A stretch of DNA of 63,913 bases, filler included, from Folioceros fuciformis (taxonomy: Eukaryota): the NCBI GenBank assembly GCA_049999805.1. It is 16 parts of 16 records of this genome, joined end to end, with 100 filler letters (N's around TTAATTAATTAA, not from the genome) between each part and the next. Parts side by side here need not be neighbours in the genome. Positions count along the whole stretch, not along the records: positions 33,787 to 38,187 come from JBNGIO010006730.1; 15 more parts are not named here. One strand, written 5' to 3'. Below, piece by piece: positions 224-63,730 of this stretch. Every line of letters starts with the position of its first letter. The stretch's first letter is position 1. The translations under genes and the position numbers were made by a program. The notes beneath the pieces are model-generated. The model was given only the letters and a program-made list of their open reading frames with translations, ran no database searches and was not told the DNA's origin.

Positions 224-2587
224 ATGCTCGGTTTTTGATAGAGTCCATCCGCCCTCTATCGAGGAGCAACTTTTCTGTCTCTTGGACAGGAAGCAGATGG
301 ATTGTTTTCAACACCTTGTACAATAATCAATCAGATTAGAACCAAATGGATCCAGCATCTTCCCCTAGCAGTTGCGCTGGCTGCAAAAGCACGAACTGTA
401 TTAAAAATCTGCCACACGCTCAATTCTGTAGTCTAATCACTGCATTAAAGAAAGCCCTAAGCAGATTCGGAGAGATATCAGATGCTTTTCTTGCAGATGC
501 CGTCGTGCATTATTACAGCTAGCGTCTTGCATTATGTCGAGGAGAAGAGGTAGAAGGTTGGTTGCCAGAAACTGCTGACCCGTTTGTAGGCGCACCATGA
601 GAACCAGTTGCATCACAACATCGTAGATTGAACCAATTTTTCAGTTCGCACTGTAGAAACCAGTATCAGCAGTCATGCGCACCATTCCAGGGTCAGAACT
701 TACAACAAATTAGGCCTGATCTCCTGCACAGTCTANNNNNNNNNNNNNNNNNNNNNNNNNNNNNNNNNNNNNNNNNNNNNNNNNNNNNNNNNNNNNNNNN
801 NNNNNNNNNNNNNNNNNNNNNNNNNNNNNNNNNNNCAGAACTTACAACAAATTAGGCCTGATCTCCTGCACAGTCTATGCGCACTAAGCCGTGACATTGC
901 TCGAGCACAGTTAGTTTCTGTCCAAGAACAGCAAAAACTTGCACGTAACACTCACCCACTGTGTCGCAATTGCGTAGCCAAGCAGTCTATCATTCCATCC
1001 TCTACTGACCAGCTTCTTGCAAAGGTGCATGACCAAGTCAGGTTGCAATCCCAACGCATAAAAGAAACCAACATCAAATTAGACGCACTGTTTGCACAAG
1101 GTCAGTTGAACTCGCTGGCTGTACCTGCACACCCAAGAACCAACACGCAATGTGAGAGCACCGTTTTTGGAGCATCAGCACCTGTGCAATCAAGAAACAT
1201 GAAAGCCGCCGAGATTGAGTGCAAGGATCCAGAGGCGTGTGCCGCAAGGGCTGCTCGACCTTTTAAAAAAAAAAAACAATGGCTGTACATGTCACAAGGC
1301 GGGAGAGGCAATCGCGGCCGTCGCAGACCAAATCGTGGTGCCGGATCAAGTCAAGGGACTGGCCGAGGGCGAAGCGATACAAGTGAAGAATCAGGGTTTT
1401 ATCCCCTACCGGAAGATCCCTCTTCACTGTTTCAAACACCTGACCAGATAGCCTCTCCACAATCCAGTACATCTCCCCCTCCCTCTTACTTTGTACATTT
1501 AGCACAGCTAGCACACGCTGCACAGAGTGCACAGTCAACAAGCACCGAGCGACTAGCTCAAGCCACAAGGGCTGCACTAGCCGCGCACGTAGTGAACTCC
1601 ATGGCTGGGCAACCTATCACAAATAACACAACCGTCAATAATCTGAAAATAGATTTTAAGGAAAAAGATAGGTTCAACGGATCCCAATTTGACATTTGGG
1701 CTCTCCGGGTCCAAACAATCCTAAAAGAAAATGACCTGTGGGATGTGGTTACTGGCACCACTCCCAAACCAGCTGCCACAGCTCCTCGGGCAGAACGAGA
1801 TGAATGGGCGAAAATGGATGTCCGGGCTTTGGCAGTTATCCAGTCTGCACTGGATGGTTCAATGATGCATCACACTCAGGATGCTGAATCCACGAAGGAT
1901 GTTTGGGACTCCTTGTCCCAAAAGCTACAGAGTATCAAATGGTTCGTCCATGGCTAGTGCTACTCGAGCTTTTTACAATTGCAAGATGAAAGAGCATGAA
2001 TCTGTGGAGCAACATGTTCAAAAGTTTCGAATGCTATGTTCGAAGCTTACCCCCAGTGGCACAAGGACTACTGAGATGCAGGCAGCAATTGCACTCTTGT
2101 TGTCCCTACCTAAGAGCTACAGGACGTTCGTCAGTAATCACAGCTCAAACTTGAGGAATGTGGCGCAAGCCACACCAGCAGGCCAAGTACCTGCAGTAAC
2201 ATTATCATACCTTATTAGAGCACTTCTCGAGGAGGAGTCCACAAGGCATTCCAGCAGGGGCGTTTCATCCTCCAGAGGAGAGTCGTCCAACATAGCCCTC
2301 TTTTCAAATAAAGGTCCAAAACGGCAGCAACCTCGCCAGTCATGGCAACCACAGAGCAGTGGTACACATGCAAGCAACAAGCAACGTCTTGCCTCATCTC
2401 CAGCGAAGAAAAAGGGCGAGTGCAACTGGTGCCTTATACCTGGCCATTGGGAGTTCAAATGCCGAAAAAAGAAAGCAGGAGACCCACGGCGTACAGCTCC
2501 CCCTAAAACCAATGTGGTACAGAAACGACCCAACACCCTGTTAGCTGTGTACATGGTCTCTACCCCTCTGTACAGGCATGCATGGTA

Positions 2588-2687
2588 NNNNNNNNNNNNN
2601 NNNNNNNNNNNNNNNNNNNNNNNNNNNNNNNTTAATTAATTAANNNNNNNNNNNNNNNNNNNNNNNNNNNNNNNNNNNNNNNNNNNN
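2588..2687. other. Artificial contig spacer (44 N + TTAATTAATTAA + 44 N); first of 15
   Basis: The same spacer recurs at about 5534, 10978, 24318, 26813, 31482, 33687, 38188, 39423, 41332, 52628, 54567, 55768, 57625 and 58967; the 12-mer has stops in all six frames. Confidence 0.97.
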
Positions 2688-5121
2688 TTCACATTCACAA
2701 AATTCAGTGGTAGCAGTAGGCACACCTGTCCACAACCTGTACCAGCTGGATATCTCTTACAAGCTTGGCAAGCCCTCTGTCAACTTGACTCAAGAGCAAC
2801 AGGCAGAACGAGACACCATGCTCTGGCACTGCCGCCTTGGGCATGTCAACTTTGACAAACTCAAAACCATGGTGGCCAGCAATACTTTGTATCGTGAGAA
2901 GTTCATGATCAAATTTGCCGAGAAGCAATTCTCTGAAGCTTGCGTTTTTGGCAAGCACCACTGAGCTCCCTACAAGGACAAACATCCAACCCGAGCCAAC
3001 AAGCTTCTGGAGTTAGTGCACTCAGACCTCTGTGGCGCGATGTCTACAGCTTCTTTTGGAGGTGCACGATATATATTGTCATTCATCGATGACTAGAGCA
3101 GGTACATCGTAGTTTACCTAATACGGGAGAAGAGTCAAACCTTTGACTATTTTCAGGATTACATTGCATTTGCCCAACGCCAAACTGGTGAGCTGATCAA
3201 GACCTTGCGGAGTGATAACGGTGGAGAATACTGCTCCAATGCCTTCAAAGAATTCTGCCAGAACCAGGGCATTGCTAGGCAGTATACTACCCCCCACACC
3301 TCTGCACAAAATCCAGTCACTGAGGTGAGTAACAGACACATCCAGGAACAAGCAAAAGCCATGCTGCATCAAGCATGCTTGTCAAAAGAATATTGGGGAG
3401 AGGCAGTTGCAACTGCTGCTTACATCCGTAACAGGCTCCCCACCAGTGTGTTTCCTGGAGCAACCCCATATGAACGATGGACCAATTCCAAGCCTCGTAT
3501 CAACCATCTTCGGCTATTTGGCTCACCTGCGTATGCTCATTTATCCGAAGACCAGAGGGTAAAAATGGACTACAAGGCTCGGAAGTACGTGTTTGTCGGA
3601 TATACTGAGGGCATAAAAGGATATAAGTTACTTGATCCTGACAAAAGGACCACGACACACTCCAGGAGTGTTGTCTTGAACGAGCTTTTCCTGCTCACTG
3701 CCCAAAGCCAGCAGCCAGCTGCAGCCAACCAGGCTTCGTCCAACTCCGAATACGATGATGGTGATGACACGTCAACCTCAGTCCAGTTGCACAGCTCCTC
3801 ACACACAGATCCCTTTGCTGTTCAGGCACCTGTCGACATTACAGTTAGCATCTTCCCAGAAGATGAAACTGCAGACAGTGATGAGCACGAGGACGAGGGT
3901 GCACATGAGGATGCAACAGCTGAGAGCCAGCTGGACATACCTGAGCCAAGCATACCTGAAACTGCTGCAGCCCCTGAATTTGTTGTGCACCCTCGGCGTG
4001 GAACAAACCTTGGCACACGCAGACACACTTCTTCACCCTCTGAGTGGACTAATCCCCCACTAACCTACAGCACTTTTTTGGTGCAAGAAGACTCCAATCC
4101 AAACAGCTTAGTGGAACCACTGTCCTACAAAGAAGCCATCTCTGGCCCAGAAGCTGCTAAGTGGGAGGAGGCTATTGCATCAGAATATCAGTCCCTAATT
4201 GACAATGGTACGTGGGAGTTAGCTGACCTACCACATGGCAGGAAACCTGTTACCTGCGAATGGGTATTTAAAAAGAAGTTGGCAACAGATGGCAGTGTTG
4301 CACGCTTTAAGGCACGACTTGTTGCCAGAGGTTTCAGTTAGGTCAAAGGCCTGGATTACACGGAAACTTTCTCTCTGGTTGTAAGGGCCACATCCATTTG
4401 GGCACTGTCTGCCGTGGCAGCACAATATGACTATGTCATGGAGCACATGGACATCAAAACTGCTTTCCTCAACGGAACCCTGGAAGAAACCATATACATG
4501 TGTCAGCCTCAGGGGTTCATAGACAAAACATACCCTAACAAAGCATGCAGGCTGATAAAGACAATATATGGGGTGAAACAATCTTCCCGTGCCTGGTACA
4601 ACCGGATAGACACTTACTTGAAGAAGTTTGGATTTCTGCAATGTGAGGCAAATACAAATGTATACAAACTGGTGGAGCGAGATGGCATAGTATTTTTAGC
4701 ACTGTATGTCGACGACGCAATGCTCATCTCCAGCAATCCCAAGCTCAAAGCCAAGGTTAAGTCCATCCTTACCTTAGAGTTTTTGATGTCAGACTTAGGC
4801 AAATTAACTTGGTTCCTAGGTGTCGAAATCCAGCAGAACCTGGCAACACACAAAGTGTTCATTCACCAGGCACAATACGTTAGTCGAGTCCTGGCCAGGT
4901 TTAGGATGTCAGAATGCAAACCAGCCTCAACTCCTATGGCTGTTGGAGAAAAATTGAGTATGGATCAGTCTCCCAAAACCGAACTAGAACGGCAACAGAT
5001 GGAGAAGGTACCCTACCGTTCAGCAGTGTGCTCCTTGTTTTATTGCAGAAACTGGACTCGTCCAGATTTGTCCTATGCAGTGGGAGCTACTGCCCAGTTC
5101 CTGACCTACTATGGACCTGCG

Positions 5122-5349
5122 TAAACGAAATCAGCGAGACCAGATGTGCATCACTGAGTGCGACGGGAAGAGCAAGAAGAAAACATCGATTAAGGAATGA
5201 CGTTTCGTATCAGTGTGTGTGCATATGAGCAAGAGATGCATAACCGTTTCATAACCATAATAAATATAATAAATAATTAACCAATCTACGAACTAGGTTT
5301 AAAGCTAGTAAAGGCTGTTTAATGAACCGAAAATAATTATTCCTTAATA
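5122..5349 (-). mobile_element. 228-bp insertion, probable solo LTR with TA...TA termini and 5-bp target-site duplication
   Basis: CTGCG at 5117-5121 and 5350-5354; removing the insert and one copy restores ...YYGPA-HWTCVQRIMRYLKGT. The minus strand reads TATTAAGG...TTTCGTTTA. Confidence 0.75.
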
Positions 5350-6410
5350 CTGCGCATTGGACATGCGTGCAACGAATCATGAGGTACCTAAAGGGAACGT
5401 CCAAACTTGGACTACTATACAAACAACATCCCAAAAATCAGCTACTTACATGCTTCTGCGACGCCGACTGGGCCACTAATGCTGAGACCCGCAAATCAAT
5501 CTCTGCCAACTGCCTCCTCCTTGGAACAAGTGANNNNNNNNNNNNNNNNNNNNNNNNNNNNNNNNNNNNNNNNNNNNTTAATTAATTAANNNNNNNNNNN
5601 NNNNNNNNNNNNNNNNNNNNNNNNNNNNNNNNNGGGCCGGGGCCTGAGCCTGGGCGGGACTGGGCCTGAGCCCAGTTGGCGGCTCTTTCCCCCAACCTTC
5701 CGCTTTCGTATTTTATGCTTGCTTTGCTTGTCCGCCACTGCTGAGTGTGAACCTTTTATCCCGGCGCACCAGATTGGCTGATTTGATCAAGCTGACGAAG
5801 TCTCAGGACGAGCTAGGCCTTGCACATGTTGACTGCACAGGCTTTCCTTCCTATCTGTTCCTCGAAATCGATACGGATGGAGAAGAAGCATGGCATGGTG
5901 AGTCTGGGGGATGACGGTGATGCAGGTGCTGCTTCGCGATAGCTGCGCTCGACTTGGTGGACGCCACTCTTCTGTCTGCTGCGAGTTCTGCAGCTGCTGG
6001 TCGGGTCCAAATACGCTGCAGCACCAGCAGACGTCTTGCTCGCGGCCGGCCCTCCGGTCATGGGTTCACAAGGTGGTTCGTTGTTTCGCAAGTTTAGGTC
6101 GGTATGATACCCTGTCGTGGAGGAGGGGGAGGTTTGCTTAGCGGTCTGCTCTCTTCTCGGTTTATGGAATGCAGTGGGACTCGCGTGGTTGGAGGATTGT
6201 AAGGACCGTAGGGTCCCTGGAAGTTGCGATTGGCGTACAGCAGCCGGTGGAATGCTCGTGATGTCCGTTGATGACATAGCACCAGTTTATGCATCTGTGC
6301 TTGTTGTTTTGGAAGATGGCAAGGTGTGAGCTTCTGAGCCGTGAGCTCATCGGTTAGAGGCGAGCATCCCTGACGCATGCTTCAGCGGCCCACCAGGTCG
6401 CTCAGCAAAC

Positions 6411-9400
6411 ATGAAGATCGACATGGGGACCACAGTGGATTGTGCGGATAAGGTCGCTGCCATTCTGGCCTCCATTGATGAGACGAAGAAGATTGTGAAC
6501 AGCGTGGTAATCAATAAAAACAACTTCTTGCTGTTGGCACTTCACTTGGCGGATTTGAAGCCCTTGCTGGAACTTCTGACTCAGCCGCTCTTCGAATCAT
6601 TGGACACGAGGCGTGCCCTGATTAAGCTTGCGAGTTTGGCAGACAGGGCGTATGTGGTCACGAAGCAGAGCATAGTGCGTAGTCGCATCTATCTGGTACA
6701 CCAGAGTAGTGCGGTTTTTCTACAGATCAAGAGGCTGGACAAGGATATGATGGACAGCTTAGACCTCTTTCCTTCGTCTCTTTCCGCTCCTTTGCAAGAA
6801 CATGTGAAGAACCTGAGGATTAAGTTAGAGTCGGGGGCCTTCTGTTTGGATCCCGACCTGGAGCAGTTGGCTAAAGCTATCAAAGTTGGTCTGGATCGGT
6901 GCCAGATCGATGAGCCCTATGCCACGACCTTGCTTCAATCTATTGCTGAGTTCCTCCAGGACCCCCTATCGGCAGCTGAGCTCAAGGTAGAGCTGGAGGA
7001 TGACCTAGCTGCAGCTGAACGGGAAAACGTGGTATCGGACGTACAGGTGTTGACACAGCTGTGTCAGCTCCTCAGACCTGCATCTGTTCTTGCCGACGTA
7101 CGTAGGTTAGCGTCTCAAAGATTTTTACCTTTCAGTCCTGATTGCCGGGGTCCTATCCCAAGTTCTTTTATTTGTCCAATTACCAAGCTAGTTATGGTAG
7201 ATCCCGTGATGATCTCAGAGGCAGGTTATACGTATGAAAGCTCCGCCATCCGGGAATGGTTCAGCAGAGGGAATCGCACATGTCCGGACACTGGCAAGGA
7301 ACTGGAGTCCTTGGATCTAGTGCCCAACCGAAATCTTCGGCAGGCCATGGAAGAGTTTTTTGATCTGAGGGGTCGCGAGACTCTTATTGTAGCTCTTGAG
7401 AAGATCAGATCAGATAGCCCTGCAGAACACGAAGAGGCAGTGCATATTATAAAGTCTCTGATTGATGCCGACTCGAAGTACAAGCGTCTAGTCGTTTCCA
7501 TGGATGGGCTGAAGCCACTGGTAACTGTCCTAAGGCGGGCAGCTCCAGTATTGAAGGAGAATATTCTCAGACTTTTGTGTGGTATTGCCGCTGTGGGAGA
7601 AGAGCAGAAGGTAGTTTTCGTTCGTTTCACTCTTGCAATAAGGTTGGTTTGTGTGATGTCTGGGACCACATTGAAAGGTCTGACGTGGTCTTGTCCATAT
7701 TGCTATGAAGGTTCTCCTCAAGGAAGCCGGTGCAGTGCCTGTGTTACTCCGTATCATCATCAAAAATCCAGGTGAACATGGAGGTGCCGTGCAGCTTTTG
7801 TGGGAATTGTCCAGGTGCGAGGCAGGGAAAGCAGCCATTCTTGCCGAACCTTTATCAGTTGTTACGATTGCGAGTGCTCTTAATCATTGCACTGGGGACC
7901 AAAAGAGGTTATTGAATGATCTTTGTAAAGGCAATACCAAAGTCGTTATTCAAGTGGCCAGTGCGGGAGTCTTTGGACCACTTGTAGCCATGCTACGGCC
8001 TGGTAAGATTGGTCGCAGTTGAGGCCTAGATCTCCTGCTCCACTCCAAGTATGCAGGGTCATGTCCAGTGTATGAAGTTGTGCTGAAAGGTTCCTTGAAT
8101 TGTTGCCAGGGAATGATATGGCTGTCCGAACAGAAATGGCAGCTGCAATTTGTGACTTTGGACTTAATGAGCACAGCACCGCTGCTCTTGGACAAGCCGG
8201 TGCAGTTCCACCTCTGTTGCTTCTCCTCCAGCAGGGCTATCTGGACGGGAAGATAGCAGCTGCTGAAGCATTGCTCCATCTTTCTAGTTGTGACAGCAAC
8301 AGAACAGCCATTGCCAGTGCAGATGGTGTGGCAACCCTGGTAAGTTACCTGGATTCAAGTAGTGAGGAGTTAACTGGGGTCGTGGTTGGGACCCTAGCAA
8401 ACTTGGCTGCGCATCGTGGTTGTGTAGATCAAATGGACCGACAAAGTGCTACTGCGAAGTTGGTGGATATAGTGACTTTAGGGGAGAAAACTGTCAAAGA
8501 GAACGCCATAAAGACATTGCAATGCATGGCCAAGGACAGCAGATCGGTAAGACTTGCATTGAAAGGCAACAGTGAAGTGCTCAAAATTTTTGCCCTGCTA
8601 CAAGATGAGGGCTTGTCATCAAGTGGGAGATCAAGCATCATTCGTCTTATCTGCCACCTTGCTGGAGATCGTCATTCTCGGTCGTCTGTTATTTTGAGCA
8701 GAGAACTGCTGAGGCTATTCATCAGGCTTTTGGAACAGCCTATCTCCTCAGAGGAGAAGGAGGCCATAGTGGGAATTTTATCTAGTTTGTCAAAGGAAGA
8801 AACAATGCGGGATGTTCTCCTGCAGGAACAGTCTATGCTCCCTGGGATAGTGAAGTGTCTAGACAAGTCTTGCAGCCCAAAGGTGAAAGATAGTGCTGCA
8901 GCTTGCCTTGCGAAATTGATGGACCTGACGAGTCTGCAAATACAAGTGGCATTGGCTAGGCAGGGAATGGTTGCATTGTTGTTGGATCTGATCTCCAGTG
9001 GCACTGAGGGCTCTAAACGAGACGCGGCTCACGTGTTGGGGATTCTTTCAAAACACACTCCAGAATTAACAAAACGCCAGACATTTGTGAAGAGGTCTCT
9101 AGCAGCCTTGGGCATGAAGAAGTATAGAGCTTGCAAAGTACATGCTGGGAAATGCAGTAAAGAAAGTACGATGTGTCTTATTGAGTCAGGAGCAGTGCCT
9201 TACTTGATTAAACTTGTCAGGGAAGGTGGACTATCGAGTTCTGAGGCTGCTATGGAAGCTTTATACACTCTCCTGACAAACGAACAGGATACTGAAAGGG
9301 CCATTGATTTCCTTGTGAAGAATGAGATCATATCTTCCATCTCGAGCCTTGTTGGAAAATCCAAAACATCCACAGAGCAAGCTGTTACCGTACTGGAAAA

Positions 9401-9563
9401 GATTTTCAGATTGAGGAGGTATCGGGATCAAAGGTATTTCGCGCCAGCCAAATCTGGTCTGTTGGTTACGATGACGAGTGGGTCAACTGACGCTCGTCGA
9501 ACTGCTGCAATGGCGCTTACGCATCTAGAACTTATGCCCAACAATTCGACGTGTACTCAGTGA
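6411..9563 (+). CDS. Plant U-box/ARM-repeat E3 ubiquitin ligase (SAUL1/PUB43-44-like); exons 6411-7610, 7711-8002, 8110-9563
   Basis: U-box PSSFICPITKLVMVDPV...YESSAIREWF...TCP...LVPNRNLR; multiple ARM repeats; CKVHAGKC...CLIESGAV motif typical of SAUL1-type PUBs; phase-consistent GT-AG introns. Confidence 0.9.
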
Positions 9564-33088: not shown

Positions 33089-33686
33089 CTAAGTCGGATT
33101 CTTGAAGAAGACGCTGAGGAATACCGACAACGCAAACCAGCCAATGAAGATGTACCCCGTGATCCTGATCCCCTCCTCGTCCTTCTCAGGAGTGTAGGTC
33201 GCAGGAGCATAATCTCGCGACTGCGTGACATCAGCCTGATGCGGCCAAACGTATCGCTCCTCCCGGTTCTCCACCCGCTCCAAGCTCCAGTCATACAGCC
33301 TGCGCTCCTCCTCGGACGTGAGCAGGTCAAACGACTCCCTCAACACCCCAAGAGCACGCGCCTTCTCCTCGTCCTCGCCTTCCCCCACCATGAGCTCCCG
33401 CGCCAGCTTCCCGTAGGTGGCCCTTATCTGCTCGTCGGTGGCCCCCCGCGGCAGGCCCAGGCGCGCGTAGTGGTCCACGGCCACCGGAAGCTCGCCCGCG
33501 AGCACCTGCTTGATGGCCTGGCTGCTCAGCAGGGGAGACGGCCGCACCAGGGCCGGTGCCTCCTCCGACGAAGTGGCGTCTTCCGCAGTAGACGCCCCGG
33601 CCGAAGCTCTCACCCGCATGCTCTGCATTCTAGGGATTCTCACGACCGGGGTCCCTAGCCGGGCTTGCACTCCCGGCGCACAAGGG
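33089..33686 (-). CDS. ndhU: Chloroplast NDH complex subunit U (J-like protein CRRL); true start probably in the gap
   Basis: Transit-like N-terminus, DHYARLG...EERRLYDWSL...RYVWP, C-terminal TM GYIFIGWFALSVFLSV; no HPD motif. Confidence 0.85.
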
Positions 33687-33862
33687 NNNNNNNNNNNNNN
33701 NNNNNNNNNNNNNNNNNNNNNNNNNNNNNNTTAATTAATTAANNNNNNNNNNNNNNNNNNNNNNNNNNNNNNNNNNNNNNNNNNNNATGCCTTGCTTATA
33801 GCATTGCGCTGCTCTCAAGACTCGGCTTGACAACTGATGGAGTCTTCTTGCTCTGTTTGTAG

Positions 33863-34818: not shown

Positions 34819-36015
34819 AGACAGCAGTGTGGTGGAGCCCTGCACATAGACTTTTGTGTTTCTTTGTAGTCAGTGAGAGACGTGACTCCCTGTTGGGACC
34901 TTCGCGTGCATTGCTTCCCGGACCTAGTACGTGAAATGCTGGTGGAATCTAGCGTCGGAGGATGGCTGCAGAGATTTGCAGGAAAATCCTGAAGTTCGGA
35001 GATGAGGAAATCAGGAAAACTTGCGATTTGTCGTTGAGCAGTTTTGTGCTTGTTTACTTTTCAAAAAAGCACTTGTCTGTGCATTTGTCTTCTCGTGTGT
35101 CCCGATGTGAAGAGAAAGGCTAAAAGTCTCCCCTCTCCTTACAAGCCCGTCCACAGTAACCTGGTGCGGCTTCCATAGCCACACAGCTCGTTAGACGCAC
35201 ACTTCCCTGAATTTGCATGGACGTCCTTAACCGAGTCCCAGGCAGAGAACGCACTTAAAACGCGGCAAGGAATAAAACCTGATTCGGGCTTCAATAAGCT
35301 GTGGATCGCTATGATATATGCCGAGATAGCAGAAGACCTCGTGTGAGGATTTCTGCATCACATCTTCCAATCAGCTATGAAAGAAGAATGGTCCTAACAC
35401 ATGAAAGGCAAAATAAGTCCTTGACCCAAACCCCCTTTCTCACAGCAAGGACACACTTACCGCAAGTCAGATCTTGGTCTGTTTGACGTGTATTCAAAAC
35501 AGGTCAAAGATACAAATTTGTGGCATTCTCACTGCACCAGAGACACAAAACGTACCGGCTCTCGGGCTGTCCCGGAAGTGGGATTCTGGCGCTTGTCGAG
35601 CCACAGGTGCTCCTTCGAGTTCTGTGCCTGAAGTCAAGACAGCAGGTATTTATTCGCTTCACCCTGCTGACAAGACTAGAGGACGAGAGAAAAAGAGGTG
35701 TCCCCAAAGCTTCTGCTTCTCTATCCGTATTACTCTGAGGATGGAAGAGGTGCAGACATAGCACGACGGCTAGTATATATGACCACCTGGGTTTCCTGGA
35801 GTGTTGTGCACAATAATGGTCTTTTCCAGTTGCCTTGTTGTGAATCAAAAGGGTGCTCCCTCTGGGTCACGGCCTTGTCATGAAGTAAGCCGTATGCCAA
35901 CTCTCATGCGATGCATTGAGTCACAAGAGGGCAGGCCCAAACCCTTATCAAAGGAGAAGGAGATGAAATTCCCACGAGCGGAAGGTAAATTGCCCATAGG
36001 TCCTCCTGAAAGCTG

Positions 36016-38187
36016 TTAATGCCGATCCCTGCAGGAGCAAGCCCCATCCACAAATCGATGTACACGGTGTGCATCTCTCACAATTATCTCTCGATTCTCA
36101 AGTCGCGACATGATCTTCGTACTGCTGTGGCAGTCATTGCACATGCGAAGGTTTTTGGTGACCAACAAAGTTGTGCCATCTGGTGTATTCAACAGGCCAA
36201 AAGCCAACGCCAGTTTCTCCGCATGCCCACACAAAGCATCCACTTTCTCCTGGTCAGACAACGCCTTCAACACCAGATGGGTTTGTGGTACATGCCCTCC
36301 TTCCTCTTGCAACCTCATATTCAAGCTCTTCAGTTCTGAGGAGGAAATGTCAGACCTCTCTTCCCCAACTGTGAATTCATGCACCTTGGTATTCACTTCA
36401 ATGCACGCCTTTGCAGCCTTCTTTGTAGCACCTGATGACTTTCTCAGGCTTTCTATCCTGCCTACATCATCCCACCTGCCTGCACTTGCGTAGATATTTT
36501 CCAGCAGCACGTATGAGCTTGCATCCTTGGGTGCCACTTTTATCAGATGTTCAAAGCACCGACGCCCACGCTCTACATCACCAATGGTCTTGCATGCACT
36601 CAGCAGAGCGGTCCAACCTACTACATCGTTCGTAAATGACGTAGTTTGCAAGAATTGTTCAGCCTCATCCAGGTAGCCTGACCGCCCAAGAAGATCAACC
36701 ATGCAACTCTGGTGATAGTCAGTTGGCACAAGTCCATAGTCCTCGACCATCATCCTGAAGTACTGCCGGCCTTCATGCACCAGACCTGAATGACTGCAAG
36801 CCACAAGGAGACAAATGAACGTCGTCTCATCTGGCTGGACTCCTTGCTGCACCATGTCTTCAAAACACCAGATTGCCATGGCAGCTTTACTGTGTTCGGC
36901 ATAACCATTCAAAAGGGCATTCCACGTGGCCACGTCTCGTCTGGGCATACAGTCAAAGAATTTGCGAGCTTCTTCCAAACTCCCGCATCTGGCGTACATA
37001 TTCAGCAGACTGTTACCAATAATTGTATCACCTTCGAGACCACACTTGCGAATGTGTGAGTGAAGCTCCTTGCCTTGCTCAATCGCACCCACATTGGCAC
37101 ACGCTTGAAGGATGCAAACAAAAGTAACATCATCAGCTACTATGACACCACCGACTTGCATACTTGCATAGAGCGCAAGCGCTTCCCTCCCCCACCCCTG
37201 CTGGGCATATGCTGCAATCATGGCATTCCAGATCACCACATCTCCTCGAGGCACAGAGTCAAACACATCACGAGCGTCCTCCAAGCTCCCACAACTTGCA
37301 TACATGTGTACCAGTGAGCTTCCAATGAACGAATCACCTTCAAGGCCTCGGGCCCGAATCTGCGAGTGCAGGTGCTTGCCAGGCTGGAGAGCTCCAGCAC
37401 TTGCACAGGCCTGAAGAAGGCATACAAACGTAACACGGTTCGCTGGAGTGATGCCCTCCTGTTGCATATCTGCATACAGAGCGAGGGCTTCTTGCCCTCG
37501 CCCCTGCTGACCGTAGCCTGCAATCATGGCAGTCCATGTCACGACATCCCTCCTGGGCAAGCTGTCGAACACGTCACGAGCCTCGTCTAAGCAACCACAT
37601 TTTGCATACATGTCAATTAGGGAGCTGCCAATGAAGACGTCAGCCTCAAGCCCTTGGGCACGAATCTGGGAGTGAAGCTGCTTCCCCTCCTGCATTGCTC
37701 CCAAGCTCGCACATGCTTGAAGCAGGCACAGAAACGTGACTCGATCGCCTGGGGTGATGCCCTCACGTTGCATCCTAGCATACAGGGATAGGGCCTCTCC
37801 CGCAAGCCCCTGCTGAGAATACCCTGCGATCATGGCATTCCACGTGACCACATCTCTCTCAGGCAAACCGTCAAACACTCTCCGAGCATCATCCAAGCTG
37901 CCGCACTTGGCATACATATTCACCAAGCTATTACCAACAAACACATCGGCCTCCACAGAACTCTCCCTGACATCAGCATGCACCTCCTTCCCCAGACCCA
38001 AGTCCCCAGCATCCGCACACGCCTTGAGAGCTGCCACAAAAATCCTGCAATCTGGCTCAACACCCGCCTCCCGCATCCGTCTGTACAAGCGGACCCCCTC
38101 CCAGGGCTCTCCATGCCGGGCATGCGCCAGAATGATGGAAGCCCACATTTGCACGCTGGGGGTCCCCACTTCTCTGAACGCCAGCAC
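36016..38187 (-). CDS. PLS-class PPR protein with E1/E2 and DYW:KP-type (DRH) deaminase-like domain; 5'-truncated, intronless
   Basis: Four P1-L1-S1 triplets plus P2-L2-S2-E1-E2; KKAAKACIEV in place of the PG box; HAEKLALAFG...CNDCH; ends CSCRDRH. Confidence 0.95.
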   Translation of the reverse strand: MLAFREVGTPSVQMWASIILAHARHGEPWEGVRLYRRMREAGVEPDCRIFVAALKACADAGDLGLGKEVHADVRESSVEADVFVGNSLVNMYAKCGSLDDARRVFDGLPERDVVTWNAMIAGYSQQGLAGEALSLYARMQREGITPGDRVTFLCLLQACASLGAMQEGKQLHSQIRAQGLEADVFIGSSLIDMYAKCGCLDEARDVFDSLPRRDVVTWTAMIAGYGQQGRGQEALALYADMQQEGITPANRVTFVCLLQACASAGALQPGKHLHSQIRARGLEGDSFIGSSLVHMYASCGSLEDARDVFDSVPRGDVVIWNAMIAAYAQQGWGREALALYASMQVGGVIVADDVTFVCILQACANVGAIEQGKELHSHIRKCGLEGDTIIGNSLLNMYARCGSLEEARKFFDCMPRRDVATWNALLNGYAEHSKAAMAIWCFEDMVQQGVQPDETTFICLLVACSHSGLVHEGRQYFRMMVEDYGLVPTDYHQSCMVDLLGRSGYLDEAEQFLQTTSFTNDVVGWTALLSACKTIGDVERGRRCFEHLIKVAPKDASSYVLLENIYASAGRWDDVGRIESLRKSSGATKKAAKACIEVNTKVHEFTVGEERSDISSSELKSLNMRLQEEGGHVPQTHLVLKALSDQEKVDALCGHAEKLALAFGLLNTPDGTTLLVTKNLRMCNDCHSSTKIMSRLENREIIVRDAHRVHRFVDGACSCRDRH

Positions 38188-38287
38188 NNNNNNNNNNNNN
38201 NNNNNNNNNNNNNNNNNNNNNNNNNNNNNNNTTAATTAATTAANNNNNNNNNNNNNNNNNNNNNNNNNNNNNNNNNNNNNNNNNNNN

Positions 38288-39422
38288 AGAGGGGTCTAGA
38301 TCTGTACTTTCATCCTTATCATACACATGTGGGTCAAAATCGTCCATGACAGATGCACAAGTTCTGGAATAAGTGTTCAGACTCTTCCGTGGTGACAAAA
38401 GCTCATCAAAGGTAATACTACGAGCTAACACCACTTTCCTGGTTGCTGGCTCGTATAGCTTATACGCCTTAGACACCTCAGAGTAACCAAGAAACAATAA
38501 GGGCCTCGCCCTATCATCAAGCTTACGTCGTTTCTGTTTAAGTATGTACGCATAGGCTATGGATCCAAATACTCGCAAGTGAGGAAGACTCAGAATCTTC
38601 TTCCAAAAGGCTTCGTGAGGAGTTTTACCAGGTATGCTAGTTGTCAACACTCTATTCAGTATATAAGCAGCTGTTGTAAGGGCCTCTACCCAATAGTGTT
38701 TAGGCAGTCCTGCCCATCCTAGCATACTTCTTGTCATGCCCATTAATGTCTGATTCTTACGCTCGGCTACCCCGTTCTATTGTTGTGTATAAGGAATCGA
38801 GAGTTGTCTCATAATTCCATGTGCTTCAAACAGCTCATCATACTGGAGTCCAACAAACTCACCTCTGTTGTCAGTGCAAAAGCACTTCACCAGGTTTCCA
38901 GTCTGTCTTTGTACCATAGCAATCCAGTTCTCGACACATTCAAAGGCATCACTCTTGAGGCGAGGTGTGTATACCCAAGCGTAATGTGAATACTCTGCCC
39001 CTCCTAGTGACTTAACTTGCAGTTTGCCTGCAATATCAGCATGGACAAGTTCTAACACTGCATTTGCCCTCTGTGCCTGTTTATTTTTGAAGGGAAGTTC
39101 CTTCTGCTTCGACATAACACAAGACTGACAAACAGGGAGATGCTTAAAATAGGAGGGAAGTTTTTCCCTAAAGCAATCTAAGGAAGCCATCAGATTCAGC
39201 TTCTCTTTGTTAACATGTCCAAGCCTTGCATGTCTAAACCCTAAACCCTTGCATGCCACAAGTTTGCTTCAGATACGGTGGAGGTAACATATGCTTTTGG
39301 TTCAGCAGAATTATGTAGCTAGTACAACTCGTTAACTAGTTGTCCTCTAGCTATGCACCTACCAGGTCTGGAGAGATCATAGAGACAACAATGACCTTGC
39401 TCAAACGTAAAGCCATATTTAC
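38288..39422 (-). mobile_element. Ty1/copia fragment (GAG-pre-integrase and integrase), degenerate
   Basis: HARLGHVN, CQSC, LELVHADIAG, TDNRGEF, PYTQQ*NGVAER (stop), WVEALTTAAYILNR, LRVFGS, FLGY. Confidence 0.92.
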
Positions 39423-42764: not shown

Positions 42765-45058
<2,294 letters not shown>

Positions 45059-45662: not shown

Positions 45663-47905
45663 CTAGGACAGATTGATATCGTGCATGACAACTCCATTCC
45701 GAAGACCCTGGATATAGCCCCATCTACCAAGCCGTGGCTCCTGTTGCAGGAAACCGACGCTCCGTGAGATAAGTTCCTTGGGGAGCAAGGAATGCAAGAA
45801 CTGAAAATGGGAGGTGCATACCTGGCCAACTCCAGCAAGCAGGAAGCGGCCACTGTGCGCGAACTTCAGAGAGTTGACGAACCCTTTCTGCTTGACAAAG
45901 TCATTTCGGTGAGGATATGGTGTCACATCACAGGACCCACAGTGGATGAGGCTGAGAGCTGATACTTACAACGGGGAGACCGTGCAGTCGTCGAATACTC
46001 TTGTTCCCGTCTTCCAAAGCCCAGAGTTGTACTATCCCATCACCTGCGCCTGATGCAACCAGGTCGCTTCCGCGGCAAACAGCAACCGCACCCACCCACT
46101 GTGCCGCAGCTCCCTGGGGAGCTGGTGGGGTTTGTGAATGTAATGGCTCGCCGTCGCTTGCATCTGATCAGCATTGCCACATTAGTAACTTGGAAGAGTT
46201 GAAGTTGGCTGTGACCCGTGGACCGGCGACCGTAAGGTACGCTTACATGTTTGCCCGTTCGCAGAGCCATTTGCCATCGCCTTCGAGGATGCTGCAATGA
46301 GAGGTTTCTCGGAGCCGTCTAACTCTGCAGAACTGTGATCGGCAGGCCCAGCACTGCCATGTGCATTGCGCACAATGAATGCAGGCTTCTTCCGCAACGC
46401 ACTCCACAGAGCAATAGAGCCATCATCGGACCCTGACAAGAATTCCCCATTTGACAGGAAGCAACAACTTTCCATTGAAGGACCATGACCTCTGAAGACA
46501 AGCTGCGTCTCTTCTGGAACCTGCAAAGATTTCAACATCCATCTTAGCCAGCAACTCATGACAAAGGATAGTCGACCAGAACGACTGTATAACGACTATG
46601 TGTTCACGGCAGTCTGTAGAAGTGTTAACTTGCCCCCTCCAAACTGAACACCGGAAAACGGGTGCTCCTCACCTTCCACAGTCGTAAAGTTCGATCCCGA
46701 CCTGCAGAAAACACCCTCTCCTGAAGAAGGCAATCTATCGACACAACTTCACTTTGATGTCCATACAGAGTGTCTATATAAGCCCTGTCGTCCACACTCC
46801 ACAACTTAATAGTCCTATCAAACGCCCCCGATATCAATTGTTGTGTCCCCAGTCTGAAGGCCAAACTAGACACAGCTCCTTTATGACCAGGGAAGGCCTG
46901 CGAAGTCCCAACAACACCTCCAAATCAAGCTCTGCCCATAGACACCACACTCCCCTAAGATGCACCCTTAACCTCACCAGCCAAGTAAGCTGCAGAACAA
47001 ACCCACTTACTACCTGAATATGCTCTCGAGTTCTGGTGTCCCAAACGTGTACGGTACGATCGAGACCACCGGAGGCCAGATACCTTCCATCCGAGCTAAC
47101 AGCTATAGTCAACACATGTCGACTGCTACCCTTCTTCCTTCCTTGATTTCCATGAGACTGTGCCCCAGAATTTTTCCCTGAAGTTGAAGCTTCACCACTA
47201 GGCCACTCATACTTCTCACTCTTCCCCGACTCTACATCCCAATGAACAATGAGGCCGTCCTTCGACGCCGAAAAACCCCTAGAATCATCTTCTGTCAACG
47301 CCACTGCCGTAACTGTCCGTCTATGCCGCCGACCGACATACCTTCCCTCCCCTGTTTCCGAAGGTTCCACAACCCTAGATTCAGAAATGCCAACAGCAAA
47401 CAAGCAGCACAGCACTCAGTGCTCGCATCAACTTATACAAAATTTCGATGAATCTAGCCCCAACGCAGCCAATCAACTAGCTGTACCTGGCAGCTATCTT
47501 CCGCTGCACTCGGCCGCTCTCCTCCAGCTGCTGCTGCTTCAGCAAGTCAGCTACTAGGGAGTCCCTATTCCCTGCATTGCTTTTCTCCCTGTCAGCTTCA
47601 TCCCCGCCGTCCTCAGCAGCCGCAGCTACAGCCTGCCGCACCTTGTCCAAATAAACCGAGGCCAATCTCAATTTCTTCTCCTCTGCAGTCTCTTCCCTCT
47701 CCTTCGCTCGCTGCTCCTCCTCCTCATCGTCTTGAACTTCATCATCCCCCCGCTCACTCCCCTCCTCATGATCGCTAGCCAGCTCCTCGTCTCCATTTTG
47801 CTGGAAAAATTCATCTTTCCGCTGCCCGCCTGAGGACGATCCTCTTCGCTTCTTCCGCTTGGAAATGTCCTGCGTCCACTCTTTTCTCTTTCTCGCCTTC
47901 GCCAT
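45663..47905 (-). CDS. RRP9: U3 snoRNP-associated WD40 protein U3-55K/RRP9 (YAO-like), multi-exon
   Basis: Acidic N-terminus, ETAEEKKLRLA, WD repeats (GFSASKDG, YLASGGLDRTVHVWD, LWKVPEETQLVFRG), VGQEPRLGRW. Confidence 0.93.
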
Positions 47906-48349
47906 GGCCACAGCCTCAGGAACTAAGCAGACCTCACCAGGCCAAGGTTTTGGGTTTAACAATAGGGCATTGGTAGGATACACATGTAGAACTGTTAAAA
48001 GGCCTCAAATAGTACGTAACAGCTACATTCCCATTAGTCATTAGTAATTAACTAAGCTTAACTGAATCAGGTCACAAAAGGCATGCGTAGATAGATAACA
48101 GTGTGAATGTCATGGGCAATTTCACATTTCCAGCTTGGGGCCTCCCATGCGGACCGTGATGGGAGGAACCCATTCTTCCACGATCTGTGACGACTCTGAG
48201 AGTCGTTGCGAGTCTCATCTGCAATGTTTCAAGCAGTTCCCCCCTGGCTGTGGACTGAAATAGTTTTTGGAATTGAAATTCCAGGACTCATGGCTGTGTT
48301 CAGCAACCTCAAGGCTTTGTCTCTGTAACTGCGTGAAGGGAGATCCAGT

Positions 48350-57724: not shown

Positions 57725-58327
57725 GAAGGCGTACATGTCATTCAAGTCCCCGACGCTGTCCATTCCCGTTCCATTCAGATTACCCGCCAAGTTCCCGCCA
57801 TACAGCCTCCCCGGGATGGCTCGCCCGAGCTCGAAGTGCGCGATATCCACCTCGTGACCAGCGCAGGACACGCTGTTGCAAGGCAGCTCCGAGCATCCTC
57901 CCATGGAAGAATACGTCGCGTCGTCGCCTACCCCGAACATGAGCGCCACGGATGGCCATCCATGCGCGTCCCCGACCGCGTAGGCGTACGCTCCCGTAAC
58001 CTCCACCAAGAAGTAAACCAGGCTCCCGTCGTGTGCCACCCTGATGTACACCGTGCCGTCGCCCTGCGCGTACTCCTGGCCTGCGTCCTCCGTCAGGGCC
58101 GGCAGCAAGGAGAAGGCCTGCCCGGCAACCTCGTTCCAGTCGTCCGATCTGCCGTCCACCGTCACGGTGCCTGGGAGGAAGTAGGCGTCCAGCTTCAGCC
58201 CCTCCCCGCGATTGCACGGCGCCTTCGGGCCTGAGTTGTGCGCAGCCGCGGAGAAGAGAAAGAGCAGCAACGGCAGGAGCCGGATCGTGAAGGCGCCACA
58301 CACACACCAGGCCGGACAGGTTGCCAT
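57725..58327 (-). CDS. Secreted heme-binding DOMON-like (ethylbenzene dehydrogenase-like) protein, 3'-truncated by gap
   Basis: Hydrophobic signal peptide, PGTVTVDGRSDDW, FSLLPAL, AHDG, SVALMF, MGGC...SCAGHEVDIAHF...AIPGRLYGGN, recognised as a conserved plant heme-binding family. Confidence 0.8.
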
Positions 58328-59066
58328 CCGATTGTGATGACACCTTACCAGTAATTCGGGATTCCGATCTCCTGCAGGGCTCACTGCATCTCCGATCGCC
58401 AGCATTAGAATTCCATACCTCCGACAACTACCCCACTCACTCGCTGTGGAGCGGCAACCTCAACAAAATGTCGGAGTAGTTACTTCATTCCAACTTCGCC
58501 GGATCAAGTCTCGGATTGCGTTGTAAGAACCTCGGCGCAATATTATTATCAACAACTCATGAATAAAATTTCTATATACAGATATGAAATTCTTCAATTT
58601 TCACAAGCTACCTAAATGCCGCTCCTTTACGGCATGCTGATGGAGATTCTCAGGAAAATCGTCCGGGTATTCCAAGAAATCAACGATTTTTCATATTCAA
58701 CTAATCAGTCACTAATGGGTAGGTTATGTTTTTTGAGAAATAAGATAAGAAAGAGGATAAGTATCGTTCAACTAATCTTCTTCCTTCTACTACGGAATTC
58801 AAGAAACCTAAATCAACGTACACAAACCAATGTAGAGGCGTTGAAAAAGTACAAATGGATTTGCTCTAACAACACTTAACACATTGAAAGCAATCGTGTC
58901 TAGTGACCAATTTGAAAACATTCATGTCTCAATTTGAGGACTTGATCCACTCCACCTTGATCTATANNNNNNNNNNNNNNNNNNNNNNNNNNNNNNNNNN
59001 NNNNNNNNNNTTAATTAATTAANNNNNNNNNNNNNNNNNNNNNNNNNNNNNNNNNNNNNNNNNNNN

Positions 59067-60977
59067 GGGTGCTCTGATGAGGATGCAGGGGATTCAAGGG
59101 CCTCCGACCGGGTTCAGACACCTGCTCAACGGGCATTCCAATGAGGTGGCCAGGGAGAAAGAGAAGGCCACGCGGGTTGATCTGCCGTCCATCACGCATG
59201 ACATTTCATACAGGGTGCTCCCGTTTCAGACGAGATGCAGGAAGGACTACGGTACACACTGTTCTTCCCCTGCCCAGTGCAAAGGATGCGGCAAGGTGAT
59301 CAGGTAGGTGATTGCAGCGGTGCGTGTGAGCTGGGTGTTGCAGGAGACAAGTTCTTCTATTGGTGGGGGGAGGATCTGGTGCTCATGACAACTGACGCTC
59401 AGCTGGTGAAGGCAATTCTGGTGAACAAGTTCGGGCACTATGAGAAGCCTTCACGGGTAAGACGGGCTTTCCATGCTCTGCTTGGCGACGGGCTGGTCAT
59501 GGCAGAGGGCGAGGACTGGGCATACCAGAGGAGGGTGATCAACCCTGTGTTTTATCAGGAAAAGCTTAAGGTGAGCTTCAGCGTACCTGAAATTCGGTGT
59601 CAAGTGTTGACGATGTTGGAGTTGTGTGTATGAGATGACGTTTGGCAGATGCTGCTGGTGTTGGCAGAGGATGGTTGGAACCATGACGGGCAGCACAACT
59701 GCCATGCTCAGCCGGTGGCAGCACATGATAGAGGAGGAAGGAGGCCCGATCGAGCTTCAAATGGATAAGGAAATGTACAACCTGGCCGCGGAAATCATCT
59801 CCCACACTGCATTTGGCACCAACTATGAGAGGGGGACGCACCTATTCGAAGACATCATGAAACTCGCGACAATGCTGTCCACCCGCAACGTCTACAAAGC
59901 AACCATCCCCTTCTACTCGTAAGTCCAGGCAATGTACTAGTTCTGAATCCACATGCTTTCACGACTGAAACGAACCTCGTGATCCGAGCAATTCGGTGGT
60001 CGTGCATGACATGGTGCCCCCTCCAGGTATCTGCCCACAGAGACGAACAAACAGATCTCCCAGACCACACGCCGACTGGAAACAGCCATACAGGACATCA
60101 TGGCAGAACGAAACAGGCGGGTAAAGGCCGGGGACGCTTCCATGGGCTACGATTTGCTGGGGACGGTGATGAAGGCCAGCGAGAACCTTCCCAATACAAA
60201 CAGGCAACGAGACGCAGTACGGTTCGTACTGGACCAGTGCAAGACCTTCTACTTCGCTGGCCTGGACACCACCAGCTCGGCTCTCCAATGGGTCATCCTG
60301 CTCCTGGCCCTCCATCCCGAGTGGCAGGAGAAAGCCAGGGCTGAAGTGGACGAAGTCACGCACAACCACATCCCCACCGCCGACATGCTCGCCAGCTTGA
60401 AGATCGTAATCTCCTCACCACTCTTGCGCTTTGCACCATCCTTGCTTCCCGAAACCCTAACCCTACCCATTTCTCACAATCCCATGCATGATTTGCCAAA
60501 CCGCAGGTAGGCATGGTCGTGAACGAGTCTCTCCGGCTCTACCCGCCAGCTCCAGCCGTGATAAAGCAGGCCACCAAGGACATCAAGGTGGGAAACATCT
60601 TCATCCCCAAGGGCGTCACCCTGCTCATCTCGATTGTAGACATGCACCGGGACCCGGACAAGTGGGGCCCCGATGCACTGGAGTTCAACCCCGACAGATT
60701 CCGCGACGGCATGTCCAAGGCCTGCAAAGACCCCGCATCCTACATCCCCTTCAGCCTGGGCCCGCGCAACTGCGTCGGCCAAGTGTTCGCCACCTTCGAG
60801 ATCAAGCAGGCCGTGGCCATGGTCCTCCAGCGATTTCAAATCCGCGTCTCCCCGGCCTACAGACACGCGCCTACGGAGCGGGTGTCTATCGTTCCTCAGC
60901 ACGGCTTGCCTCTCCTCGTCTCTCTCAGGCCGTCGGGTGACCTTACCAAGTGTCAGGGCGTTCCTCATCAACATTAG
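59067..60977 (+). CDS. Cytochrome P450, CYP72 clan, 5'-truncated; 5 exons
   Basis: QGIQGP, LLGDGLVMAEGEDW, IISHTAFG, CKTFYFAGLDTT, ESLRLYPP, FNPDRF, heme motif FSLGPRNCVG. Confidence 0.95.
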
Positions 60978-61746
60978 CGGTGGATTAGAGTACGAGAAAG
61001 CTGGACGCCATCTCCCAGCTCGATCCGATCCCAAGGCAGTCTCTTCCGACACGCGATTTTCCCCACCCGCAATCTGAGCGTGGTGAATTCCCCTAGGACT
61101 GTGAGTTGAGAGGAGTGAGACTACTTGACCATGGATGGATCGACAGACCCGTTGTCACCCTTCCCAGCTACATCAGCTGTCCTCAGGGTGTGCACCGACA
61201 GCAGACGTTCAGTCCAATTGCGACCGCTGAAATCGGATTGGCATCTGGAATCAGACATGGAACTAGCCGGTCCGTGCGGGCCTCATGGCTGCTAGCTACA
61301 GACAGTACCATGGTTTCTAGAAGCTTCTAAAACTGACGCGATGGCGGATCATGTGGCCTCCTTGGGTACAGATCATGCGGTCTGTGCCGCCCTTTCGGAT
61401 TTTCCAGATGGCGAAGTGGCTGTAAAGATCAGTCAAGGAGCGGGTATTACCGATGGATAAATCCTTGGAAAGCGATGTACGACCCATCCCACAGCGAAGA
61501 GGCCGCAGACGCCGGACAACGCTGGAGTTTACTGGACTTGCTGTCATGTAATGAGCCAGATGTCCGACTCCTTCTGAGCCAGGTACTCCGCAGTCAGGGT
61601 TGGTGTATGGTACTGAGATTGTGACATGACTTGCACTGGCAGGAGGATGTGTGGCTTACAAGAAGGGGGTGTGGAGTCAGATCACCTGGAACCGGTGGGA
61701 GCAGCGGGCATTTCAGTTCCATACAGAGAGTGCGAGGATAGAAACT

Positions 61747-63730
61747 ATGGCGGCTCTACTACTTGCTCTGATCATCTTACTGGTCGTGTTCAGGTTTGTG
61801 AAACAGAAGTGGTGGGACAGATGGAGGATTGCTGCGCTGATGAGGAGGCAGGGGATCCAGGGGCCTCCCATCAAGCTGGAGAATCTGCTCAGTGGGCACT
61901 CCAAGGAGATGAGTGAGAGACTGGACTTGGCCCGTCTCGTGGACATGCCCTCCATTTCTCATGACATTTCATCCAGAGTCCTGCCTTTCCATTCACATTA
62001 CAGCAAAATATACGGTACTGGTTTGCACGAAGCACTGTTGTCTTGGGAGCAGAGCGCTTTGGTTTTGTGGGTTGGGTTGGGTTGGGTTGCCGGATGGTGC
62101 AATTTGAGGTGTGTTTGTTACTCGTTGCAGGGAACTGCTTTTTGTACTGGTGGGGAGAGGATGCTACCATCAGTATAAAGGACGTTGAGATCGTGAAGGA
62201 GGCACTGGTGAACAAGTTCGGGCATTACAGCAGATCCGAACAGCAAAGGAGAAGTCTCCAAGCCTTGCTTGGGGAAGGGTTGGTCATGGCAGTGGGAGAG
62301 GACTGGGCTCATCAGAGAAGACTCATCAACCCCGCATTTCGTCAGCAGAAACTGAAGGTGAGATCCCTTTCCTGAAGAGAGCGGGAGCTGTGAGAAATGA
62401 CGGCTGCTTGGCTGAGCTCGGACTGTTGGATGACAGGCCATGCTGGGAACCATGACAACCAGCACAGCTGCCATGCTCAGCCGATGGGGGCAGCAGGTGC
62501 AGGAGGCAGGAGGTGAACTGGAGATGCAGATGGAGAGGGAAATGAGCAACCTTGCTGCAGACATAATCTCTCGGACAGCATTTGGAAGTAGCTACGAAGA
62601 GGGCGAGAACATTTTCGACGACATGAGGAAACTGTCACAGCTGATGACGAAAAGCCCCTACTACACCACGATCCCCTTCTATTCGTGAGTCAGCAGTGAA
62701 ATCTAGGCGTCTGAGATCCTTGACCACCAGCAGCCCAACTGTGACTTACAAAAGCGTACGTCCCGATGCTGCTGCAGATCTGACGTTGCCGTCTCTGTGG
62801 CGTGTCCCTCCCAGGTACTTCCCCACCAAGTGGAACAAACAGATGGCTCAAACCACGGCAAGGCTGGAGAAGGCCATAGAAAAAATCACACAAGAACGGT
62901 ACAGACTCGCCGAGTCCGGCGAGGCATCCGACCTAGGGAACGATCTCCTCGGAATGGTGATGCACGCAAGCGAGAAGATCCCCAAGACCAACGTGTCCCG
63001 CAATGCTCTTCGATTCGTGCTCGACGAGTGCAAGACATTCTACTTCGCAGGCCTGGACACCACGAGCACCACCCTCCAGTGGGCCTTACTCCTCCTGGCT
63101 CTCCACCCCGAGTGGCAAGAGAAAGCTCGGGCTGAAACGGACGACGTCACCCAGCACAAGGTCCCCACAGCCGAGATGCTTCAAGGACTGAGAACCGTAA
63201 GTCCCTTCCATCCTTGCCTCGGGCTTCCACATTCTCTTCCATTCCAGTCCAGTAACGTCCCATTCAAGCTCCATCCATCTCACTCCCACCAACTGCTGCA
63301 GGTGAGTATGATTCTCTACGAAACTCTCCGGCTCTACCCACCAGCCCCAGCCCTCCAGAGGCAGGCGTCCAAGGACATCCAGGTGGGCAACCTCATTATC
63401 CCGAAACGCACCTGCCTCCACCTCTCGATACTGGACATCCACCGCGACCCGGAACTGTGGGGGCCCGACGCACTGGAGTTCAACCCAGACCGCTTCCGGG
63501 ACGGCATTCCCAGGGCTTGCAAACACCCGGCTGCGTTTCTCCCCTTCGGCCTGGGCCCGCGCACCTGCATCGGCCAGACCTTCGCCACTTTGGAGATGAA
63601 GCAGACTTTGACCATGATCCTGCAGCGATTCCAGCTCCGTCTGTCCAAGTCATACCGACACGCTCCTCACACCATGCTGACAACCAAACCACAGCATGGG
63701 CTGCCTCTCGTCGTTGCCCCACGATCCTGA
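61747..63730 (+). CDS. Cytochrome P450, CYP72 clan, tandem paralog; exons about 61747-62014, 62131-62357, 62437-62684, 62815-63196, 63302-63730
   Basis: N-terminal membrane anchor, QGIQGPP, IISRTAFGSSY, ECKTFYFAGLDTT, ETLRLYPP, PDRF, FGLGPRTCIG. Confidence 0.96.

Follow-up and report, generated by a model that had tools for sequence, protein, structure and literature searches.

A hornwort gene of the DRH subgroup of DYW:KP proteins, a candidate organellar U-to-C RNA editing factor

We propose that a gene located on the minus strand at positions 36016..38187 of the window (the whole stretch of 63,913 nucleotides that was analysed) specifies a nuclear-encoded, site-specific organellar editing factor, which would most likely convert one U into C, a reading that we hold with moderate confidence. 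The protein is a further member of the named, and already known, DRH subgroup of the DYW:KP proteins. It has a PLS-PPR-E1-E2-DYW:KP (DRH) architecture and intact active-site residues, and it belongs to a large family. In the proposed mechanism, the protein, the N-terminus of which is missing, would be imported into the plastid or the mitochondrion; its PLS array would bind upstream of the target base, as the PPR code predicts; E1-E2, together with the zinc-containing domain, would hold the base, judging from the predicted fold and the geometry of a PG-type structure; and Lys88 would attack the C4 of the uridine, to form an adduct resolving into cytidine, as modelled from the synthetic KP2, KP3 and KP6 proteins. 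Such a lysine attack on uridine is the model proposed in the accessible part of PMC11332814.

The gene is intronless and lies on a contig of 4401 bases (G000:C6730), where it is 5'-truncated by an assembly gap. Its translation yields a 722-amino-acid stop-free frame (36016-38184, minus strand), which ends with ...CSCRDRH*. From a hand-set motif parse and Pfam, this frame comprises, all on the minus strand, four P1-L1-S1 triplets that form the RNA-binding array and the first motif of which is degenerate (36934..38154, Pfam PPR); a P2-L2-S2 triplet (36625..36933, parse); the E1 and E2 motifs (36421..36624, parse and Pfam), the last E2 residue being a lysine aligned with the RNA-contacting K474 of consPPR-DYW; and a DYW:KP domain of 134 amino acids, of the DRH subgroup (36019..36420; Pfam, alignment, trees and modelling). 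The Pfam DYW_deaminase match (E 2.5e-36) is preceded by the E motif and PPR repeats, and both the order (P1L1S1)n-P2L2S2-E1E2-DYW (Pfam and parse) and the HxE...CxxC zinc deaminase signature, with its fold, are those of the PLS-class PPR-DYW proteins. The sequence-only reading had confined the feature to 36016..36430, where it placed the motifs rightly; it had omitted the PPR array upstream (to 38187) and the 100-base gap with an artificial spacer (38188..38287), at which the contig ends and beyond which lies another contig, the start of the gene, further repeats and any transit peptide being missing. The window contains 16 such gaps (100-base N, for example 33687-33786 and 38188-38287), 15 of them with the TTAATTAATTAA spacer; because it thus consists of short contigs joined by gaps, neighbours across gaps need not be true neighbours. 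A pseudogene was ruled out by the open frame and the invariant active site. Furthermore, the run X1 contains 0.99 of the 310 words sampled from window positions 35200-38187, which suggests that the gene is transcribed, a DNA carry-over in X1 being possible at the gene.

Inside the DYW domain, the motifs named by the sequence-only reading were all found where it had placed them, namely KKAAKACIEV without a PG box, HAEKLA, CxxC and the DRH end. On the minus strand, the KP box, read here as KA (KAAKACIEV, 36394..36420; Ala codon GCT at 36415-36417), lies in a loop before the first strand of the model; HAEKLA (36208..36225) aligns as the zinc ligand His65, Ala66, the catalytic Glu67 and Lys68; Lys88 (36154..36156) aligns with the lysine essential for U-to-C editing in KP2, KP3 and KP6; the CxxC motif, CNDC, provides zinc ligands (36130..36141); and the DRH terminus with the stop codon occupies 36016..36027. 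The N-terminal segment of the domain is indeed shortened, with 134 amino acids in all versus 136 in the PG type and 133 in most host KP domains: it has the KP-type deletion (no xHP segment, a gap relative to 9kfx and OTP86) and one extra Ser. The domain carries Ala66, Met92, Lys101 and Asp131, the last two positions being mostly Glu101 and Gly131 in GRP domains, and none of the five lysines probed in KP6 (1, 51, 58, 68 and 88) is missing from it. The active-site columns are invariant among 104 aligned host domains. PG domains, too, have Lys88 without exception (72/72), so this lysine does not set the direction of editing. Modelling of the 219 C-terminal residues with AlphaFold2 (pLDDT 90.5) gave a structure whose best Foldseek match is consPPR-DYW (9kfx, TM 0.78).

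To assign the class, we used 113 distinct domains parsed from the 30 best loci and 80 further stretches of the 87-Mb own genome, a sample biased toward the query, from a search with the query domain in which 150 of 550 candidates were scored, all 150 being matches; L010 (a duplicate of L006), L062 (internal stop) and about 35 lower-ranking matches were left out. Ninety-one of the 113 termini are DRH-like and 22 are GRP-like, and at 88.5% of positions the query carries the majority residue of the host DRH domains. These host domains agree with the numbering published for KP6 (Lys88, Met92 and Lys101, the latter mostly Glu in GRP). Both the DYW:KP class and the DRH subgroup, as put forward by the sequence-only reading, are upheld by the following lines of evidence. 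First, a FastTree tree of 172 rows gave a support of 99 to each of the KP versus PG split, the fern-like KP group and the GRP group, the query falling with KP, inside an 80-row DRH set (support 95); GRP nests among the DRH-like rows, and DRH is therefore not one clade. Second, a quick IQ-TREE tree of 43 rows, six of them being PG domains of the host, also separated KP, with the query, from PG with a support of 99. Third, the PG or PG/WW class was ruled out by the lack of a PG box, HAE instead of HSE, a DRH rather than DYW end and a length of 134 instead of 136 amino acids. Fourth, the GRP subgroup is disfavoured by the DRH terminus, with Asp131 kept and Lys101 not replaced by Glu. AU tests rejected neither a grouping of the query with PG (p 0.085) nor one with GRP (p 0.36), so that the assignment to a class depends on the unconstrained trees and on diagnostic residues.

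Of the features of DYW:KP domains, the query has HAE (HCE being the other KP form) in place of HSE, a residue pattern that is not exclusive to KP, as HAE also occurs in a host PG-clade domain, L157; and it is short, with 134 amino acids for about 133 and no xHP segment. The Lys-Pro dipeptide is literally replaced by Lys-Ala, the rest of the box, AKACIEV, being of the KP type; as Pro is absent in 25 of the 113 host KP-clade domains, this dipeptide is a consensus and not a strict criterion. The domain L157 itself (G000:C6303:72525-73049, minus strand) has, besides HAE, no PG dipeptide, a DQW end and a long branch.

Among known systems, the DRH subgroup (Gerke 2020, as cited in the accessible part of PMC9478123) and the corresponding KP1 share with the query the KP-type box, HAE, the domain of about 133 amino acids, the DRH end and the PLS-E1-E2 arrangement, and the published 133-residue KP consensus, as far as accessible, equals the query at 28 of 35 checked residues. 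The query differs from them by Ala for Pro at position 2 (as in 19 other host DRH domains) and by one extra Ser, and it is a natural DRH protein, known here from its sequence, whereas KP1 is a designer protein. The GRP subgroup, with KP2 and KP3, belongs to the same clade and shares Gly64, Ala66, Lys88, Val113 and Val119, but the Lys101, Asp131, His117, His133, Ala116, Cys6 and Thr17 of the query stand against Glu/Gln101, Gly131, Tyr/Phe117, Pro133 and Gly116 in GRP. The fern DYW:KP proteins, with KP6, KP6u and KP6c, have HAE, Lys88 and the deaminase core in common with the query, which unites the full KP6u set (C6, A116, V119) and the full KP6c set (G64, V113, H133), a combination absent from the accessible part of PMC11845758. 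The DYW:PG cytidine deaminases (OTP86, 7o4e/7o4f; DYW1, 7w86; consPPR-DYW, 9kfx) share the fold, the zinc ligands, the Glu, the Lys88 equivalent and the Asp-Lys pair, whereas the query lacks the PG box, has HAE for HSE and Arg-His for Tyr-Trp, and has a shorter gating region.

The Pro-to-Ala change, which had been presented as a notable variant, turned out to be ordinary: it is common among the paralogues, recurrent, and accompanied by no loss of conserved residues. Ala occupies position 2 in 23 of the 113 host domains (20/91 DRH and 3/22 GRP), more often in those of the 30 best loci (15/32) than in the others (8/81), as well as in two of the 45 database homologs of the KP type; its codon is GCT in 20 of the 23 cases, one base away from the usual CCT. 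That KA would define a functionally distinct variant, with a changed direction, rate or specificity, is in our view very improbable. It is true that KA is clustered on the tree beyond chance (15 changes versus 21.1 when shuffled, none of 300 shuffles being as low), that in the accessible part of PMC11713852 the K626A mutation of KP6, at the neighbouring Lys1, lowers U-to-C editing, and that position 2 is absent among the KP6 single mutants listed in the accessible part of PMC11845758. However, the change recurs in both DRH and GRP, mostly as a one-base substitution; AU tests rejected a single origin, whether overall (p 6e-74) or among DRH domains alone (p 0.007); KA domains resemble the DRH consensus no less (0.854) than KP domains do (0.823); the aligned Pro is conserved in only 42 of 72 PG homologs; and that Pro is unnamed in the main text of the PPR-DYW-RNA structure paper. 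The flanking lysines, implicated in the accessible parts of PMC13324415 (K474), PMC7611903 (K823) and PMC11713852 (K626), are kept in the query. We thus regard KA as an apparently tolerated exchange of CCT for GCT that has recurred in a linker loop, located between E2 and the first strand in the AlphaFold2 model.

The point of interest is instead the direction of editing, a question general to the DRH subgroup, to which the KA change adds little. The U-to-C activity of synthetic DYW:KP proteins, invoked by the sequence-only reading, holds for the GRP (KP2, KP3) and fern (KP6) designs and fails for the DRH design. Indeed, in the accessible part of PMC9478123, KP2 and KP3 are essentially U-to-C editors and KP6 is a single KP domain working both ways, U-to-C and C-to-U, while KP1, mainly DRH-based, gave 0% in all twelve listed rows of Figures 3a and 4a, in both directions and in both E. 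coli and HEK293T cells, and was inactive with or without MORF2/9. This inactivity disfavours the U-to-C reading, and it would fit a query that binds RNA and performs no editing alone, either needing a hornwort cofactor or partner, or being an orphan with a lost target. We consider such a situation quite improbable: the bacterial U-to-C reaction does stall as a crosslink (PMC11332814, accessible part) and the large family does contain some broken copies (a stop inside C3357), but four of the seven KP designs failed in PMC9478123, as far as accessible, so that the failure of a consensus is weak evidence, and the active site is invariant in the host domains, the query having an open and apparently transcribed frame.

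As to the residues, the accessible part of PMC11845758 describes KP6 mutants made toward a consensus, and shows that Lys88 is needed for U-to-C editing. Of the five residues by which KP6 is shifted toward U-to-C, the query has four (C6, T17, A116, which is the strongest, and V119). It also has all four that shift KP6 toward C-to-U (G64, V113, H117 and H133), which disfavours the U-to-C reading; KP6 with C117H alone, or with both E64G and F133H, showed 0% U-to-C in the same accessible part. The DRH proteins, including the query, might be C-to-U or bidirectional editors, GRP being a dedicated U-to-C branch, which we find possible though rather unlikely. First, the consensus used for these mutations, as far as accessible, coincides with the majority residue of the host DRH domains at 34 of the 35 positions compared. 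Second, His117 (83/91 DRH versus 1/22 GRP) and His133 (58/91 versus 0/22) are DRH-specific, and all four C-to-U-shifting residues occur together in 51 of 91 DRH and 0 of 22 GRP domains. Third, the Asp131/Lys101 pair of PG domains is kept in DRH and lost in GRP. Fourth, KP6 sets a precedent for one KP domain working both ways, and GRP is numerous by itself (179 exact termini). On the other hand, KP1 gave no C-to-U editing either; the U-to-C-shifting Cys6, Thr17 and Ala116 are equally DRH-specific (57, 60 and 72 of 91 DRH, and 0/22 GRP each); Gly64 and Val113 occur in all 22 GRP domains, the designs of which essentially edit U-to-C, so that the KP6 effects do not transfer simply; and E+ genes that would serve C-to-U editing are numerous in the host. 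The residue evidence on DRH direction is thus balanced and not decisive. Were DRH proteins C-to-U or two-way editors, the GRP U-to-C clade would have arisen by loss of His117, His133 and the Asp131-Lys101 pair, and the natural DRH/GRP pairs of one genome would map the direction-setting residues, the query being a suitable test case.

We nevertheless favour the U-to-C reading, because of the 88.5% match to DRH, the KP versus PG split with a support of 99, the five KP6 lysines and four of the five U-to-C-shifting residues; because the host edits U-to-C and has a separate C-to-U kit; and because, according to Ichinose 2022 (accessible part, citing Gerke 2020), the PPR code pairs KP proteins with U-to-C sites. 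As late as 2025, what activity natural DYW:KP proteins have was described as unknown (PMC11845758, accessible part), and our literature search turned up no subsequent assay of a DYW:KP protein that is natural or of the DRH type. Intact natural DYW:KP members are possible test subjects; the query, 5'-truncated in the assembly, belongs to a set of at least 55 host genes that end in DRH.

The hornwort nature of the host, anticipated by the sequence-only reading, is supported by the 55 DRH-stop and 179 GRP-stop genes detected with exact-terminus patterns (0 in the controls) and by a hornwort-type cox1 intron. DRH and GRP are hornwort variants of DYW:KP in the accessible part of PMC9478123. The second cox1 intron is placed at 1298 by its distance of 60 codons and 2 bases from the intron taken as 1116; in the accessible parts of the sources, cox1i1298g2 is listed for the hornwort only among six plants (PMC5654404), and the presence of cox1i1116g1 in Anthoceros is reported (PMC10012718).

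That the host edits U-to-C, as also anticipated, was shown at one cox1 site, with a nuclear copy of the unedited mitochondrial exon and of part of its upstream intron (L031:1502-1699, minus strand) as bait. The run X1, which bears the species label of the DNA run X2, behaves as RNA, as its cox1 contigs are spliced at both exon ends, show C-to-U changes at codon-restoring places and leave the nuclear flanks uncovered. Just beyond the cox1 insertion, in loose ends read by eye, X2 has TCA and, shortly after, the GTGCG intron start, and both X1 and X11 (another organism) have CCA with the intron removed. This TCA-to-CCA difference is a U-to-C change, from Ser to a Pro that we take to be conserved, X1 and X2 being different samples with a possible strain difference. 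In addition, a contig of X2 (depth 6232) equals the L031 copy except for one base, and the mitochondrial DNA accordingly has a Tyr codon (TAT) at a cox1 position where His is conserved in solved COX1 structures; this TAT is likely a U-to-C site. The corresponding edit is not listed by letter, probably due to its nearness to the alignment end, and the difference counts (3 in record 4 of X1, and 8 in X11) fit it. At L031:1540-1542, cox1 reads CTA (Leu) versus Gln in the plant COX1 structure; this codon is present in the mitochondrial DNA and unlisted as edited. The other mitochondrial insertion in the nuclear genome, now decayed, corresponds to a nad2-like segment (L121:1470-1670, minus strand) and reads TAA where Gln would be expected, hence a possible U-to-C stop-removal site.

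Regarding the C-to-U kit, a PG search of the host gave about six complete PG-type DYW domains at the top, and truncated E+ genes make up 26 of the best 30 matches to an E2-PG-box query. By analogy with the CRR4-DYW1 system (PMC11897456, accessible part), these E+ genes would serve C-to-U editing, with the six complete PG-type genes as candidate trans-acting deaminase donors. An E+ enrichment in hornworts is reported in the accessible part of PMC13386178. This set of genes speaks for a division of labour. One E2/PG-box match (G000:C5874:11794-11985, minus strand) lies in a 6045-amino-acid open frame, and others in frames of 2126 (C6283) and 2007 (C6348) amino acids; such frames may represent PPR arrays that are giant or fused, or else artefacts of the assembly.

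With the PPR code, taken in part from PMC12733224 (accessible part), the predicted target of the query is about 5'-UUnGAnGUnUUnGnnn-[edited base], and the predicted binding motif about UUnGAnGUnUUnG, at -16 to -4. In the assembly (G000), rbcL, cob and psaA/B were sought without success, no organelle genome was found, and the ATP-synthase matches were rejected as exon-like nuclear matches; the mitochondrial insertions found amount to the two short ones in L031 and L121. Scanning metagenome sequence for a cox1 pattern yielded 0 matches. At the candidate U-to-C sites of these two insertions, the predicted motif matches at 2/9 and 4/9 positions. An 8/9 match at L031:1541 was rejected, as it counts three C of second choice and as the RNA contigs covering the position list no edit.

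Elsewhere in the genome, six tail-to-tail pairs of DRH-type genes have their domains about 0.5-1 kb apart (L005, L006, L021, L023/L029, L056 and L060). The window also contains Copia-like retrotransposon fragments (632-5124, plus strand; 38240-39268, minus strand), with gag, integrase and RT recognized by eye and a retroviral SH3 domain by Pfam. It further encodes a U-box/ARM protein (6345-9563, plus strand), a DnaJ-domain protein that we assume to be NdhT/U-like (33089-33686, minus strand), a presumably gamma-like tubulin (43952-44494, minus strand), a WD40 protein (46834-48004, minus strand), a protein with a weak EB_dh domain (57725-58459, minus strand) and two tandem cytochrome P450 genes (60010-63730, plus strand).
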